The translations under genes and the position numbers were made by a program. From IMG/VR virus record IMGVR_UViG_3300044796_000394: DNA of 64,000 nt. One strand, given 5' to 3'. Positions 42,298-61,548 of the stretch are shown one piece after another. Each line of letters opens with the position of its first letter. Within the stretch, counting starts at the first letter, position 1. Under the pieces are notes generated by a model that did no database searches, had not been told where the DNA came from, and saw nothing but the letters and a program-made list of their open reading frames with translations. Origin of the DNA: a virus (Duplodnaviria > Heunggongvirae > Uroviricota > Caudoviricetes).

Positions 42298-42326
42298 TTG
42301 CAAATGATTTTCAATTATGGTAGACT
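42298..42326 (+). promoter_or_regulatory. sigma-70-like promoter with extended -10
   Basis: TTGCAA, 17-nt spacer, TGgTAGACT. Shares the 12-mer ttatggtagact with the PncA promoter. Confidence 0.5.
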
Positions 42327-42350
42327 ATTTCCATCCTTCCGGAGTAGATC

Positions 42351-43547
42351 ATGGCCATTAAAAGCTTGCTGGACAACGACATCTATAAAATTTTCATGCA
42401 ATATGCCGTACTCAAAGAGTTTCCGGGTACGCATGTCCGTATGGCTTTCATGAACCGTCGTAAAACCGATGTTCTCTCAAAATCGCTTTTGAAATCTTTA
42501 AGGGAAGTCGTAAATTCCGTGAAAGGCATGAAAGCCGATTCATGGGAATTGTCACACATCCATAAACACTACCCATTCCTGCCAAATTGGTATATGGATT
42601 GGCTTAGTGAGTTTGCCCCAAATCCCGCCCACGTTAATATAACGGAAAACGGTGAAATTACCGTTGAAGGCCCGTGGGAACAAGCCATGTGGTGGGAAAT
42701 TCCCATCCTCTACACAATCAGCGAATTGTTCTGCGGGGAAATCGATGCTGAAATAGGACACATTCCTCGTAGCGAAATAGTCAAATCCACATTGACCAAA
42801 ATGGAAATTCTGAAAGGTCACTACAGTCGCTATGGCGAGGCAATCGAACACGATCCTTGTCAATACGTTCAATTCGGCTGTCGTCGTCGTCGCTCATACG
42901 ATATTGAGGATGAAGTTGTTCGTACAATGAAAAAGGCCGATCATCCGAATATGCTCGGTATTAGCAACATCCACTTGGCAGCGAAATACGATATTAGGCC
43001 GGTGGGCACAATGGCTCATGAGTTCGTTATGGGTGTCAGTGCATTGAAAAGCCTGCGATATGCCAACCGTGAGGCAATGGAGACATGGCTTCGTGTTTTC
43101 AAGGGCGAATTGGATATTTTCCTGCCCGATACTTTTGGAACGAATGTGTTCCTGAAAGACTACACTCGCCAATTTGCTCAAGCATTCAATGCGACTCGAC
43201 AAGATAGCGGGTCAGCGTATGAATACGGCGAAAAACTCATTAACCATTACAAAACAGTAAAACTTGATCCAAAAACCAAATCGATCACATTCAGTGATGG
43301 GTTAACTGCTACAGAATCAACGAACATCCAGCAACACTTCTACAATCGAATTAAAAGAGCTTACGGCATCGGCACACACTTCACTAACGATTTCATGAAC
43401 AGACCTGCCATGAATATCGTGATGAAGTTAACACATGTCAACGGAATTCCGGTCGTCAAGCTCAGCGACGTTCCCGGCAAAGCCTGTGGCGATCCCAATG
43501 CTCTCAAAGCAGCAAAGTGGGTGTTTCTCGGCGAACCTTTAGTATAA
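42351..43547 (+). CDS. pncB: nicotinate phosphoribosyltransferase
   Basis: LLDNDIYKIFMQYAV and GPWEQAMWWEIPILYTISE align block by block with E. coli PncB, with similar length (398 aa). Confidence 0.85.
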   Translation: MAIKSLLDNDIYKIFMQYAVLKEFPGTHVRMAFMNRRKTDVLSKSLLKSLREVVNSVKGMKADSWELSHIHKHYPFLPNWYMDWLSEFAPNPAHVNITENGEITVEGPWEQAMWWEIPILYTISELFCGEIDAEIGHIPRSEIVKSTLTKMEILKGHYSRYGEAIEHDPCQYVQFGCRRRRSYDIEDEVVRTMKKADHPNMLGISNIHLAAKYDIRPVGTMAHEFVMGVSALKSLRYANREAMETWLRVFKGELDIFLPDTFGTNVFLKDYTRQFAQAFNATRQDSGSAYEYGEKLINHYKTVKLDPKTKSITFSDGLTATESTNIQQHFYNRIKRAYGIGTHFTNDFMNRPAMNIVMKLTHVNGIPVVKLSDVPGKACGDPNALKAAKWVFLGEPLV

Positions 43548-43556
43548 GGATTTACG

Positions 43557-44045
43557 ATGAAGTACGTTGAATGTCCCGACTTGTTCATTCCTGAATCCAT
43601 CGATGATTACAAGAAAACCTTGTTTCTCGGTGGGGGAATTTCAGGTGTGGGCAATTGGCAAGCGGAGATGGTGAGATTGTTGCAGGATACGGAGTTAATC
43701 CTCATCAATCCCCGGCGAACCAACTTCGACGTTAATAATACAAAAATGACTGTGGAACAAATCCAGTGGGAATATCACCACTTGAATTTGTCTCATGCTC
43801 GTATGTTCTGGTTCCCACCGGAAACTCTGTGTCCGATCACCTTATTTGAATTAGGGAGATTCTCCGTACAGAGCAATCCCCTATTCGTAGGGTGTGATCC
43901 CAAATACGCACGGTCGCTTGATCTCGAAGAGCAAATGAAGCATGTCCGAAGATCGGAAGTCATGTTTGATTTGGAGATTCTCGCACGACAGATTATTTTG
44001 TATGCGAAACATATGTCAAGCAACGGGCGATACTACGCCACTTAA
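43557..44045 (+). CDS. nucleoside 2-deoxyribosyltransferase-like (Nuc_deoxyri_tr2 fold) protein
   Basis: TLFLGGGISG N-terminal glycine loop and a later FELG block. Typical phage NDT-like size (162 aa). Confidence 0.45.
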   Translation: MKYVECPDLFIPESIDDYKKTLFLGGGISGVGNWQAEMVRLLQDTELILINPRRTNFDVNNTKMTVEQIQWEYHHLNLSHARMFWFPPETLCPITLFELGRFSVQSNPLFVGCDPKYARSLDLEEQMKHVRRSEVMFDLEILARQIILYAKHMSSNGRYYAT

Positions 44046-44332
44046 CCACTACTACTAGAAGAAGACGAACTTGATGAATGAATAACTTTGTGTGTTGGAA
44101 AATTGCTCACTCTTAACGGTACGCCCGGCAGCAATCCAATTGGTGGAGGCACGAAGTCATCAAAATCAGGATGCCGCAAATTCGGTAAAGGAATTGGAAT
44201 TCGTCTCGTTCCCCACGGCCAAAGTAATGGTAAAAAATACCTCATTCCCGGTGGTGGCACCATTGGCGGTGGTGCTTGCGGTTGTGGTTGTGGTTGCGGT
44301 TGTTCGATTGGTGGCGGTGGTGGTAATTGCAT
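44042..44332 (-). CDS. proline-rich protein with C-terminal poly-serine tail
   Basis: PPPPPIEQPQPQPQPQAPPP, ending THKVIHSSSSSSSSSSSG. AAGGA ribosome-binding site. Start chosen at MQLPPP. Confidence 0.5.
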   Translation of the reverse strand: MQLPPPPPIEQPQPQPQPQAPPPMVPPPGMRYFLPLLWPWGTRRIPIPLPNLRHPDFDDFVPPPIGLLPGVPLRVSNFPTHKVIHSSSSSSSSSSG

Positions 44333-44354
44333 ATTATTCCTTTTCTTGTGGTGT

Positions 44355-60216: not shown

Positions 60217-60240
60217 CATTTAGGTAATTTATGGTAGACT
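60213..60240 (+). promoter_or_regulatory. sigma-70-like promoter with extended -10
   Basis: TTGACA, 16-nt spacer, TGgTAGACT, then an AAGGAG ribosome-binding site. Confidence 0.55.
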
Positions 60241-60258
60241 TAATATAAGGAGTCTACC

Positions 60259-60864
60259 ATGAATACCGATGCCTTATTTGTTGTCGATCCTCAAAACGGT
60301 TTTTCAAAATTGTGTCCAAAAGAGTTGCCCGTAGAAGGGGCTTTGGACATCATTGCTCCGATTAACGAACTCCTTGAATTACCTTTTGCCCGCAAAGACA
60401 TGTCATTGGATTGGCACCCTGCCGATCACGACTCTTTCAAAATATATCCGCCTCATTGCGTCATGGACACCTTCGGCGCATCGCCTCTTAGTGGGTTGAA
60501 TACCCACAAGATTCATGTCATTTGGCGTAAGGGCTACGACAAAACCGGGATGGCATACAGTGCCGTCGATCAACACCCGTATCTGCCTCATATGTTCATT
60601 CATCAAGGTATCAAAAGAATTTTCTTTTGCGGCATTTGTACCAACATCTGTGTGATTGATACAGCATTAGGAATGATCCTTAATTGTCCGATGTATAAGG
60701 ATGTCGGACGACCTTTTTACGAAGTCTACATTGTAGAAGATGCTTCGGCGGGCATTGATATTCCCGCATTGGACATTGATCAAAAAGCCGCCAAAGCCAA
60801 AGGCATTGCCAATGGCATCAAATACATTACCGTGGCCGAAGTCAAGAAGATGGTTAAGGAGTAG
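60259..60864 (+). CDS. pncA: nicotinamidase (isochorismatase family)
   Basis: D-K-C triad (VVDPQNGF, WRKGYDK, CGICTNICV) and DWHPADH metal site. Confidence 0.75.
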   Translation: MNTDALFVVDPQNGFSKLCPKELPVEGALDIIAPINELLELPFARKDMSLDWHPADHDSFKIYPPHCVMDTFGASPLSGLNTHKIHVIWRKGYDKTGMAYSAVDQHPYLPHMFIHQGIKRIFFCGICTNICVIDTALGMILNCPMYKDVGRPFYEVYIVEDASAGIDIPALDIDQKAAKAKGIANGIKYITVAEVKKMVKE

Positions 60865-60866
60865 TC

Positions 60867-61052
60867 ATGGCTAAAAAGACTCAAACCAAACAAGAGCAAA
60901 TTTCGCAAGAAGAGCAGTATATCGCATTCCTTCAAAAGCGATTAGCTTCTGAGCATTACAAGGAAGTTACTTCAAAGGAAGACTACGCCAAGGAAAAGGC
61001 AAAGTATGAAAAGGCAAAGTTCAAATTGAAGATGTTGAAGGAACAGCGTTAA
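60867..61052 (+). CDS. small coiled-coil protein
   Basis: 61 aa, Lys/Glu-rich. Confidence 0.4.
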   Translation: MAKKTQTKQEQISQEEQYIAFLQKRLASEHYKEVTSKEDYAKEKAKYEKAKFKLKMLKEQR

Positions 61053-61548
61053 TAGAACCTACGATGTTTTCGATAATCTGCCGGGATTTCTGAAACAGTG
61101 AAATCAAACCCGAATGAAATTTCTTTGAAGATATTAACATCATCTTTTGAATTTCTTCATAAGCCAACCAGTCAATATGGGAAGTTTCCCAACTATGTCC
61201 GGAATGGGGACTGAAAGTGAATTCTGTTGGCACAACACCAATGAAATTGAAATACTTGAAGTTTCCAGAACTGAAAACATAAGCGGGAGTTAACTGGATT
61301 GCCCCTTCGTAACCCGTCTCTTCTTTCATTTCTTCTTTGGCACTTTCGGCGGGTTGCATTCCTCTTTGGATTGCGCCTCCAAGAGTGCCGTAGCAATTAC
61401 CCATATGAACCGATCCGGAACGCCACGCAAGACAAATCCGTTTCGTACTTGAACATATCGGAAGAATGCCGCTGGCCCCACCACCTTCACCAGCCCAAAA
61501 ACCGTCGTTATCGTAGTGAGATTCTATCCACATCTTAAATCTCTTCAT
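61021..61548 (-). CDS. Nudix hydrolase
   Basis: Nudix box GGAIQRGMQPAESAKEEMKEETGY (Gx5Ex7-K/R-EuxEExGu). N-terminal MKRFKMWIES. Confidence 0.65.
   Translation of the reverse strand: MKRFKMWIESHYDNDGFWAGEGGGASGILPICSSTKRICLAWRSGSVHMGNCYGTLGGAIQRGMQPAESAKEEMKEETGYEGAIQLTPAYVFSSGNFKYFNFIGVVPTEFTFSPHSGHSWETSHIDWLAYEEIQKMMLISSKKFHSGLISLFQKSRQIIENIVGSINAVPSTSSI

Follow-up and report, generated by a model that had tools for sequence, protein, structure and literature searches.

Predicted entry half of Preiss-Handler NAD+ salvage, with a deoxyribosyltransferase-like partner gene, in a huge phage

A huge phage of ~614 kb probably carries the entry half of Preiss-Handler NAD+ salvage as auxiliary genes, together with a partner gene for a protein with the nucleoside deoxyribosyltransferase (NDT) fold. 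We analysed a 64-kb part of its genome, hereafter the window. An earlier note on this DNA listed four ORFs, encoding PncB, an NDT-like protein, a PncA-like nicotinamidase and a Nudix hydrolase, and all four are present at the coordinates it gave (Table 1). The start it set at 42298 is that of a spurious 51-aa TTG ORF, and PncB starts at 42351. This TTG forms the first bases of the -35-like hexamer in the promoter-like site upstream of PncB. The two gene pairs are separated by 16.2 kb rather than 17 kb.

Table 1. Features of the putative NAD+ salvage loci in the window
Feature	Position	Strand	Details
Promoter-like site upstream of PncB	42298..42326	+	-35 TTGCAA, 17-nt spacer, extended -10 TGgTAGACT
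PncB, nicotinate phosphoribosyltransferase (nicotinate + PRPP + ATP -> NaMN)	42351..43547	+	398 aa; Pfam, NCBIfam
NDT-fold protein, uncharacterised family PF15891	43557..44045	+	162 aa; starts 9 nt after PncB stop; own AAGGA RBS
Promoter-like site upstream of PncA	60213..60240	+	-35 TTGACA, 16-nt spacer, extended -10 TGgTAGACT
Inverted repeat ATGGTAGACT-N10-AGTCTACCAT	60231..60260	+	Perfect, 10-nt arms
PncA-type nicotinamidase, predicted (nicotinamide -> nicotinate + NH3)	60259..60864	+	201 aa; Isochorismatase domain, triad, metal site
Nudix hydrolase, membership in set uncertain	61021..61548	-	Nudix fold and Nudix-box catalytic glutamates

PncB has a full-length domain architecture, with PF17767 over residues 7-124 and PF04095 over residues 170-392 (Pfam NAPRTase 197.9 bits, NAPRTase_N 87.1 bits). 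The N-terminal domain is NAPRTase_N and not NAMPT_N. Over its full length the protein also exceeds the cut-offs of the NCBIfam equivalog TIGR01514 (371.9, cut-off 269.55) and of PRK05321 (NF003704; 385.9, cut-off 379), and it scores far lower against models of the other NAPRTase type and the PHROG Nampt family. Since the curated equivalog model is passed, Nampt and Namat identities are ruled out, and the high confidence placed earlier in this gene as a nicotinate phosphoribosyltransferase was justified. The predicted ATP-coupled formation of NaMN from nicotinate and PRPP is credible. A GGAG RBS is located 8 nt upstream of the gene.

The PncA-like protein matches Pfam Isochorismatase (PF00857) with 38.3 bits. 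Its PDB sequence matches are mostly nicotinamidases, the best ones (3r2j, 1ilw, 2wt9, 3pl1) included. The D-K-C triad reported before is present as D10/K91/C131, aligned to D10, K94 and C133 of Pyrococcus horikoshii PncA (1ilw), and is accompanied by metal ligands D51/H53/H66, aligned to D52, H54 and H71 of the same structure. A metal-binding Asp-His-His site sets nicotinamidases apart from other isochorismatase-like hydrolases. All 24 family members compared share D10, D51, H53, H66 and C131, and at least 90% of them have K91. The nearest homologues are Gemmataceae (planctomycete) proteins with 45-55% identity, named nicotinamidase in their source records. The cut-off of the NCBIfam equivalog PRK11609, which models enterobacterial PncA, is not reached (48.7 vs 174). 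PncA and PncB are credible enzymes for the conversion of nicotinamide via nicotinate to NaMN, as had been proposed.

The two loci form distinct transcription units, and the genes that lie between them have structural or DNA-metabolism roles. The sites upstream of PncB and PncA would act as sigma-70-like promoters; the one before PncA has 10 of the 12 consensus positions plus the TG. As the extended -10 is identical in both, PncB and PncA are probably turned on together. The 12-mer TTATGGTAGACT is located at 42315-42326 before PncB and at 60229-60240 before PncA. Exact copies are found just twice in the 64 kb, each time inside the promoter-like site, and with at most one mismatch there are five matches in the window against 0.20 expected. 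A generic promoter scan of the window gave no enrichment (50 sites, 44.3 expected from shuffles). The inverted repeat ATGGTAGACT-N10-AGTCTACCAT encloses the RBS of PncA together with the AT of its start codon (ATG 60259-60261). Its RNA fold has -23.9 kcal/mol (z = -6.6), equalled by none of 200 shuffles, whereas the equivalent region before PncB has no significant fold (z = -0.8).

An alternative is that the four genes were acquired independently and share no function, PncA and PncB being host-derived passengers in a very large genome, the NDT-fold protein serving deoxynucleotide salvage or DNA-base modification, and the Nudix hydrolase being a housekeeping or sanitising enzyme. We consider this improbable. 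The distance of 16.7 kb from the PncB stop to the PncA start, filled with unrelated genes, speaks for it; that the identical 12-mer precedes just PncB and PncA speaks against it. So does the occurrence of these genes in other phages. A tblastn search of 50,697 phage records found PncB in 13 and PncA-like genes in 6, and both together in 4 records where about 0.002 were expected. The PncA-PncB combination exceeds chance, and the two genes occur together among the few phage records having either.

The assignment of the NDT fold to the 162-aa protein is confident. Its sole Pfam match is PF15891 (Nuc_deoxyri_tr2), and membership of the classical NDT family (PF05014) was rejected. No NCBIfam model matched, and a PDB sequence search gave no characterised NDT. 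E98, invariant within the family motif CPITLFELG, is from its sequence a candidate catalytic Glu nucleophile at the end of strand four. The conserved motifs are similar to those of NDT/Rcl-type glycosidases, and an invariant Arg pair together with a glycine loop suggests a phosphorylated substrate. We predict an N-glycosidase or transferase of NAD/ADP-ribose salvage whose substrate is a phosphorylated ribosyl compound. Close homologues in the family number 423 and its representative clusters 3,465; it ranges over DPANN archaea, Deinococcales, Chloroflexi, huge phages and giant viruses. No paper in the literature searched connects it to NAD, and its recurrence beside NAD-recycling genes in numerous phage, bacterial and archaeal genomes is a new lead.

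This association was surveyed in viral (80 loci, 59 after dereplication) and cellular (80 loci, 64 after dereplication) neighbourhoods of NDT-like relatives. With a NAD query set taken partly from the very loci surveyed, a core NAD gene was found within 10 kb on the same strand in 24 of the 59 viral loci, and NAD-related genes lie beside the NDT-like gene on the same strand in 41 of the 64 cellular ones; the other 35 viral and 23 cellular neighbourhoods contain no NAD gene. The top neighbours in the 80 viral loci are Nampt, Prs, NADAR and NMNAT-Nudix. The cellular neighbours are Nudix, PncA-like, NAD-kinase-like, NadR-like, PnuC, NAPRTase, ARH and NADAR genes. NAD-related ORFs become less dense the farther they lie from the NDT-like gene (viral 6.7% to 0.3%, cellular 35% to 12%), and every one of them shares its strand.

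Single clusters in other huge phages contain PncB, PncA-like, Nudix, NMNAT, NadE and NDT-like genes. In Sinorhizobium phage Phosso the order is NadE..PncB..Nudix-NMNAT-isochorismatase-hyp-NDT-like. LR756500 has the NDT-like gene 4 nt upstream of PncB, with about 29-35% identity, LR756501 has a PncB-NadE-PnuC-NadR-PncA-like cluster, and a 261-kb contig holds another co-cluster of these families. Archaeal and Deinococcales operons combine PncA-like, NAPRTase, Nudix, ARH, NADAR, PnuC, NadR-like, NrtR-like and NDT-like genes. A fusion of NDT-like and Nudix domains is indicated in one archaeon by ORF calls and BLAST, and by the record name "Nudix" only in Tunturi_5 gp225 and a Klosneuvirus protein. 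The NDT-fold protein, earlier counted as part of the set, keeps that place because its same-strand gene neighbourhoods are conserved across phages, archaea and bacteria and because two independent huge phages have it next to PncB.

Some of these data agree with independent acquisition. ThyA, DHFR and dNMP-kinase-like genes are also among the viral neighbours of NDT-like genes, so the NAD signal could partly reflect a general clustering of metabolic genes. In the window, a dNMP-kinase-like gene and a methyltransferase follow the NDT-like gene at a distance of 1.2-1.8 kb, and the closest characterised structural relatives of its product are deoxyribosyltransferases, Rcl and MilB. Nevertheless, NAD genes dominate the surroundings, with the steep distance decay and complete strand agreement given above, and the arrangement next to PncB recurs in LR756500 at low identity. 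Our tentative proposal, which we hold to be possible but somewhat less likely than not, is that PF15891 is an unrecognised NAD+/ADP-ribose salvage enzyme that would free a pyridine base and/or ribose-5-phosphate, so providing for both substrates of the PRPP-dependent transferases PncB and Nampt, and that would serve phages as an accessory allowing NAD+ reconstitution to work under NADase attack.

A quite different function, which we regard as very unlikely, is that the NDT-fold protein degrades or sequesters ADP-ribose-derived immune signals (e.g. the cyclic ADPR isomers of Thoeris) by means of a fold shared with TIR, and has no part in salvage. NDT-like genes do associate with the ADP-ribose-processing ARH and NADAR genes, and a recent preprint (PMC13232231) reports the degradation of ADPR signals by other phage proteins, which also supply NAD+ synthesis. 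However, PF15891 members are frequent in NAD-salvage operons of cellular genomes alongside PnuC, NadR and NrtR, their motifs are of the glycosidase kind described above, and the similarity to TIR is no higher than that to many Rossmann-like folds.

The Nudix gene is convergent with PncA, and the two form no operon. The signature of ADP-ribose pyrophosphatases is said, after Dunn et al. 1999, to be a conserved Pro about 15-16 residues past the Nudix box. This Pro is missing here, positions 95 and 96 being G and N, and the sole nearby Pro is at +8. The NADH pyrophosphatase motif SQPWPFPxS was not found in the protein either. A fold search does not discriminate the subfamily, and the window Nudix differs from the type that accompanies NAD operons; two related homologues are located in Nampt-Prs-NAD kinase arrays. 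For lack of the signature, with an undiscriminating fold search and a type other than that of the NAD operons, the label of ADP-ribose pyrophosphatase is not assignable, and we do not retain the earlier reading of this protein as the enzyme that turns ADP-ribose into ribose-5-phosphate.

Among window ORFs of at least 60 aa there is no Pfam match to NadD, NadE, Prs, Nampt or NMNAT, and these families are also absent from the 8 kb downstream. PncB of the Preiss-Handler pathway is encoded, while NadD and NadE are missing in the 64-kb window and the 8 kb downstream, the other ~540 kb lying outside this coverage. Without NadD, NadE and Prs the window's genes lead to NaMN only and cannot yield NAD+ on their own. 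Nor was any phage ADP-ribosyltransferase detected within the window, where the phage's own ARTs had been invoked as a cause of NAD+ cleavage.

The observations concern gene identity, catalytic residues, folds, conserved neighbourhoods and the 12-mer common to PncB and PncA, and from them we infer the activities, the co-regulation, the substrate of the NDT-like protein and the physiological role as follows. In brief, PncA would deamidate nicotinamide, to our knowledge a product of all NAD+-consuming or NAD+-cleaving enzymes, to nicotinate, and PncB would join this to PRPP in an ATP-driven reaction to give NaMN. NadD and NadE, from the host or from the phage genome beyond the window, would take NaMN via NaAD to NAD+. 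The NDT-fold gene would be co-transcribed with PncB, and its product may cleave or exchange the N-glycosidic bond of a phosphorylated ribosyl compound; NMN, NaMN, AMP and an ADP-ribose derivative are candidates. The free pyridine base and/or ribose-5-phosphate released would enter PncA/PncB (or Nampt) and PRPP synthesis. For the Nudix hydrolase, whose membership is uncertain, recycling of ADP-ribose or of some other dinucleotide is a possible role. The net outcome would be that NAD+ in the infected cell is raised or restored, which could aid general phage metabolism or offset NADase-type defences.

NAD+ depletion is among the commonest bacterial means of aborting phage infection. NADase effectors (Thoeris ThsA, DSR1/2, SIR2-HerA, SEFIR) split NAD+ into nicotinamide and ADP-ribose. 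A counter-defence role of the gene set is plausible. In its full form this reading makes the set a fourth NAD+ reconstitution pathway, in which PncA and PncB recapture nicotinamide, the Nudix and NDT-like proteins turn ADP-ribose into ribose-5-phosphate for PRPP, and phage replication is rescued; we consider that form possible but rather unlikely. The published NARP1-3 show that such defences can be beaten by phage NAD+ rebuilding, phage NDT-like relatives adjoin Prs and lie near the NARP2-type genes Nampt and NMNAT-Nudix, and homologues of the window Nudix occur in the arrays mentioned above. Against this, the route requires host NadD and NadE at a higher ATP cost than NARP1/2, the Nudix has no ADP-ribose pyrophosphatase signature, and anti-defence and defence models gave zero matches in the window. 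Moreover, in DPANN archaea and Deinococcales the same families are found in salvage operons of the ordinary kind, so a housekeeping role would be sufficient.

Three phage NAD+-rebuilding pathways have been shown experimentally, and none of them uses a nicotinamidase with a nicotinate phosphoribosyltransferase. The PncA-PncB route in jumbo phages is so far a bioinformatic observation only, and the window offers a clean, testable example. It also draws attention to the small, highly conserved PF15891 family, which rides with NAD-salvage genes in three kinds of genomes. If its reaction were assigned, this could fill a gap in maps of NAD/ADP-ribose recycling, improve the annotation of thousands of "nucleoside deoxyribosyltransferase-like" genes, and reveal a phage source of PRPP or free base in NAD+ reconstitution.

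Compared with known systems, the NDT-like protein can be set beside 4mcj, BDI_0649 of Parabacteroides distasonis, whose function is unassigned. It differs from NDTs, Rcl/DNPH1 and MilB in that its match is to PF15891 and not to the classical PF05014. Cellular PncA-PncB salvage operons and NrtR-type regulons use the same two enzymes, whereas here the carrier is a phage, the genes have two locations and no regulator gene was found.

NARP1 consists of Adps and Namat, and NARP3 of PnuC and a NadR-like protein (PMC13464706). Like the set described here, they are phage-encoded means of regenerating NAD+ from its precursors or from what its cleavage leaves, but the window has no Prs-like Adps, Namat, PnuC or NadR. 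NARP2 consists of Nampt and a bifunctional NMNAT/Nudix (bioRxiv 10.1101/2024.02.11.579819). It likewise recaptures nicotinamide, by a PRPP-dependent phosphoribosyltransferase that is also a member of Pfam PF04095, and NDT-like relatives frequently neighbour NARP2 genes plus Prs. In contrast, the transferase here belongs to the PncB type: it uses nicotinate, which a nicotinamidase must first supply, and yields NaMN in place of NMN; the window has no adenylyltransferase, and the NadD and NadE steps are extra. The earlier statement that the combination differs from NARP1 and NARP2 is borne out, as no member of the pairs Adps+Namat, Nampt+NMNAT and PnuC+NadR is found among window ORFs of at least 60 aa, and the difference extends to the later NARP3.

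Novelty was nevertheless implied too strongly, since Preiss-Handler genes of jumbo phages are already published. These "NAD-jumbo phages" carry pncB-nadD-nadE clusters, with pncA also mentioned, and counter-defence and metabolic support have been proposed as roles (Microbiome 2024, PMC11662467). The term "deoxyribosyltransferase" is absent in a term search of that paper, so a PF15891 partner is apparently unmentioned there. A complete pathway is the criterion for that group, whereas NadD and NadE are not in the window and the rest of the genome is outside its view. The phage studied here resembles the NAD-jumbo phages in being a huge phage whose auxiliary genes for NAD+ synthesis include PncB (and PncA), and differs from them in that these genes are split over two loci.

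The four open reading frames that the earlier note had joined into a distributed NAD+ salvage set are all present where it placed them, and its start of the set, 42298, belongs to a spurious TTG ORF. The nicotinate phosphoribosyltransferase (PncB) carries the Pfam domains NAPRTase_N and NAPRTase and matches the curated NCBIfam models TIGR01514 (371.9, cut-off 269.6) and NF003704 (385.9, cut-off 379) over its full length. The curated cut-offs matter because Nampt and the NARP1 enzyme Namat share its Pfam family; the equivalog scores and the NAPRTase_N domain rule out both, and we assign the protein to the nicotinate-specific PncB type. 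The 201 aa nicotinamidase-like protein (PncA-like) has a modest Pfam isochorismatase score. Nicotinamidases make up the majority of its PDB sequence matches, the best ones included, and alignment to P. horikoshii PncA gives a catalytic triad of D10/K91/C131 and a metal site of D51/H53/H66. D10, D51, H53, H66 and C131 do not vary among 24 relatives, of which at least 90% have K91. The closest homologues (45-55% identity) come from Gemmataceae and other Planctomycetes (Zavarzinella, Gemmata, Fimbriiglobus, Urbifossiella), a clue that hints at the host of the phage and at a host-derived origin of the gene.

Coordinates of features in the window
Feature	Position	Strand	Remark
PncB	42351-43547	+	
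NDT-like protein (PF15891)	43557-44045	+	162 aa, 9 nt after PncB
PncA-like protein	60259-60864	+	
Nudix hydrolase	61021-61548	-	F-x-x-W motif
ORF	61548-61832	-	F-x-x-W motif
ORF	22449-23420	-	F-x-x-W motif
ORF	19897-20856	+	F-x-x-W motif
ORF	16003-17367	+	F-x-x-W motif
Amidoligase_2-domain proteins (one strong, one weak) and Peptidase_C26/GATase protein	3589-4635, 10778-11488, 16003-17367		
GT9 heptosyltransferase-like gene	17604-18461		28 kb from HldE-like region
Weakly Tpt1-like ORF	19960-20856		
Protein without Pfam match	24069-28532		1,487 aa, repeat-rich
SPFH/Band 7 proteins	31215-34469		Two in tandem, 536 and 530 aa
Sulfatase	35565-36734		
dNMP-kinase-like, SAM methyltransferase, HldE-like	45263-48014		Downstream of PncB pair
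HldE-like bifunctional heptose kinase/adenylyltransferase	46605-48014		
Cysteine-dioxygenase-like cupin	49322-49762		
Large terminase, T4-type	49763-51427	-	
Ferritin-like protein	54971-55423		

The PncA and PncB loci are connected by a common upstream element and by co-occurrence in phage records. The exact 12-mer TTATGGTAGACT occurs twice in the window, ending 24 nt before the PncB start codon and 18 nt before that of PncA; with at most one mismatch there are five matches against 0.20 expected. Both copies read as an extended -10 element, TGgTAGACT, with TTGCAA 17 nt (PncB) or TTGACA 16 nt (PncA) upstream. We infer two copies of one candidate promoter type, and therefore a probable co-regulation of PncA and PncB; the promoter is termed a candidate because a generic promoter scan of the window was not enriched over shuffles. 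The PncA copy also forms one arm of a perfect 10-nt inverted repeat, which takes in the ribosome binding site as well as the start codon's first two bases (-23.9 kcal/mol, z = -6.6). A hairpin in the PncB leader was dropped, its fold not being significant. In tblastn searches of 50,697 phage records, PncB was found in 13, the PncA-like protein in 6 and both in 4.

The window is part of a huge phage, since the nearest relative of its terminase is from LR756511.1 (a 595-kb 'uncultured phage', 41.6% identity), a 614,480-bp JGI contig holds the exact NDT-like and PncA proteins, and stretches of a Logan assembly are nearly identical to the window. A megablast search with 5 kb of the window found no close relative among the 50,697 phage records. 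The window also has genes for a Gp23-like major capsid protein, for tail-fibre-like proteins and for many DNA methylases.

The conserved NDT-fold partner is the real lead of the gene set. A scan of viral contigs with PncB alone found a single locus, and the neighbourhood survey was therefore moved to the NDT-like alignment. This protein has 423 close homologues and 3,465 representative clusters at E <= 1e-3. An alignment of 39 sequences contains 28 invariant residues, including a glycine-rich first loop (GGISG), NPRR, QIxWE and CPITLFELG, the last of which is similar to the motif with the catalytic Glu in NDT and Rcl enzymes. We fetched 80 viral loci of 232 matches, clustering all neighbouring ORFs, and 80 cellular loci of 238 matches, from DPANN archaea, Deinococcales, Chloroflexi, cyanobacteria and Planctomycetes. 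The top viral neighbour families are Nampt (17 loci), Prs (17, often the immediate neighbour), NADAR (13) and an unknown 223-aa protein (13), followed by a homing endonuclease and NMNAT-Nudix (11); ThyA, DHFR and kinases are also present. Cellular NAD-related neighbours are Nudix, PncA-like, NAD-kinase-like, NadR-like, PnuC, NAPRTase, ARH and NADAR. Scored with NAD queries drawn in part from these same loci, 24 of 59 dereplicated viral neighbourhoods have a core NAD gene within 10 kb and 41 of 64 cellular ones have NAD-related genes; the share of NAD-related ORFs drops as one moves away from the NDT-like gene, in viral loci from 6.7% at 0-2 kb to 0.3% at 8-10 kb and in cellular loci from 35% to 12%, and all these ORFs are on the same strand as the NDT-like gene.

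One 261-kb contig carries the array Isochorismatase-NAPRTase-x-NadE-Nudix-Nudix-ADP-ribosylglycohydrolase-NDT-like-PnuC-AAA_28-CTP_transf_like-methyltransferase-NrtR, and on a 350-kb phage contig Nampt, NAD kinase and NADAR adjoin the NDT-like gene. The fusion partners RGS, Amidase_3 and DUF1653 were uninformative. NDT-like and Nudix domains appear to be joined in a 287-aa protein of a DPANN archaeon (our own ORF calls) and in a 412-aa Klosneuvirus protein named 'Nudix hydrolase' (BFVD A0A1V0SJZ7), which hints at related substrates for the two enzymes. We found no paper tying PF15891 or 'deoxyribosyltransferase' to phage or cellular NAD salvage in the incomplete literature searched, and the literature on YtoQ held no functional information.

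That PncB, PncA and the NDT-fold protein belong together is backed by independent genomes, as the same families cluster in other huge phages. Sinorhizobium jumbo phage Phosso encodes NadE .. PncB .. Nudix-NMNAT-isochorismatase-hypothetical-NDT-like in the same orientation and within 7 kb, a layout shared with three metagenomic loci. In LR756500 (462 kb) PncB lies 4 nt downstream of an NDT-like gene, accompanied by NMNAT-Nudix and an ARH-like gene, and Atu_ph07 has PncA-like-NMNAT-Nudix 3 kb from PncB. The gene order in LR756501 (735 kb) is PncB-NadE-...-PnuC-NadR-like-PncA-like; by BLAST and HMM searches these five genes lie on the same strand within about 8.5 kb of the stretch LR756501.1 418266-443426. 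This phage has been described as without a complete NR salvage pathway, with nadD only (PMC11662467). The NAD module of the window's phage is divided between two places. None of the other genes around PncB and PncA has a homologue in the NAD neighbourhoods.

The Nudix gene is convergent with PncA. Its identity as a Nudix enzyme holds: the fold is confirmed, the Nudix box is canonically spaced and carries two substitutions, and all three catalytic glutamates are conserved without exception in the family. The proposed conversion of ADP-ribose to ribose-5-phosphate did not gain support, as the fold search gave no substrate assignment and its homologues lie in varied contexts. The array Nampt-Prs-RNA ligase-NAD kinase-x-Nudix occurs on two related phage contigs, and one homologue has NADAR and ART-PolyVal 5 kb off; another lies inside a glycosyltransferase cluster and another near DNA polymerase and ThyA. 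A role in NAD or ADP-ribose metabolism is possible.

Five window ORFs, that of the Nudix among them, share the motif F-[KRSNT]-x-W-[LIVM], in most cases with E next, in their first 40 residues (e.g. MKRFKMWIES, MNFKLWLEA, MDFKLWLEY, MKFKSWIAE), where shuffles gave 0.15 expected and a maximum of 2. It also occurs in several Nudix homologues elsewhere and is absent from shorter ones. The motif may serve as a targeting or propeptide signal at the N-terminus, e.g. for capsid packaging. The window Nudix has its closest relative (54% identity) in residues 120-288 of a 1,489-aa protein of the cultured 309-kb jumbo phage Tunturiibacter phage Tunturi_5 (PP885688.1), encoded after a 'minor head protein'. 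A 1,262-aa Tunturi_5 protein, annotated Nudix and adjoining the portal gene, has an NDT-like N-terminus of the type of 4mcj, a PDB structure without assigned function (giant-protein entries: 6581-11050 of fetched locus L179, 6953-10741 of L180). This suggests that giant virion-associated proteins of Tunturi_5 carry NDT-like and Nudix enzymes.

We did not find NadD, NadE, Prs, Nampt, NMNAT, PnuC or NadR by Pfam among window ORFs of at least 60 aa, nor in the 8 kb beyond its 3' end. Because these families were not found, the predicted output of the window genes is NaMN, and NAD+ would be beyond reach of the window alone; the remaining steps would have to come from the host or from genes in another part of the 614-kb genome. 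The HldE-like protein was considered as the missing NaMN adenylyltransferase and rejected: both HldE domains match (rfaE_dom_II 159.7 bits; whole HldE 291 bits, under the 521 cut-off) and no NadD model does, so that we read it as an ADP-heptose enzyme homologue. With the GT9-like gene it possibly forms a phage ADP-heptose glycosylation system. The dNMP-kinase-like ORF was excluded as a nicotinamide riboside kinase (PHROG dNMP kinase, E = 1.9e-27).

The phage's own ADP-ribosyltransferases, invoked in the earlier note as NAD+ consumers, were not detected in the window by Pfam or PADLOC. Tpt1 is an RNA 2'-phosphotransferase, an NAD+-using ART-fold enzyme, and a non-significant Tpt1-like match (E = 0.21; N-terminus VLVYHGTDPKNIPSIMSQGLIPN) is the window's sole hint of an NAD+-consuming enzyme. 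Amidoligase and Peptidase_C26/GATase proteins, also encoded here, are a pairing typical of peptide-tagging/ligase systems in large phages. GC content in the window is highest where the SPFH/Band 7 pair lies (53% vs about 42%). The cupin, the ferritin-like protein, the sulfatase and the repeat-rich protein are unusual phage cargo.

We consider a four-step PncA, PncB, NadD/NadE scheme with supply from the NDT-like enzyme most likely. PncA would convert nicotinamide to nicotinate, PncB would form NaMN from nicotinate, PRPP and ATP, and NadD and NadE would complete the synthesis. The NDT-like enzyme would cleave or exchange the N-glycosidic bond of a phosphorylated ribosyl compound, a substrate that is our guess, yielding free base and/or ribose-5-phosphate. 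We propose this reaction because of the fold, conserved Glu, Arg pair and glycine loop, and the supply role because the gene adjoins Prs, Nampt, PncB and Nudix. The gene set stands as observed, and its interpretation as a means of rebuilding NAD+ is supported in part. Judged by the cellular operons, plain salvage would suffice to account for it; by the NARP precedents, a defence role against NADase systems is plausible.

NARP1 consists of Adps and Namat, NARP2 of Nampt and NMNAT (bioRxiv 10.1101/2024.02.11.579819) and NARP3 of PnuC and a NadR-like protein (PMC13464706). Neither paper mentions PncA or PncB, and the phage list of Iyer et al. 2022 is limited to NadV, NadM and NadR. However, PncA with PncB in a huge phage is already a known type, because a bioinformatic study of 2024 described 'NAD-jumbo phages' with Preiss-Handler clusters pncB-nadD-nadE and also mentions pncA (PMC11662467). 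The gene set represents a variant of published phage NAD+ salvage.
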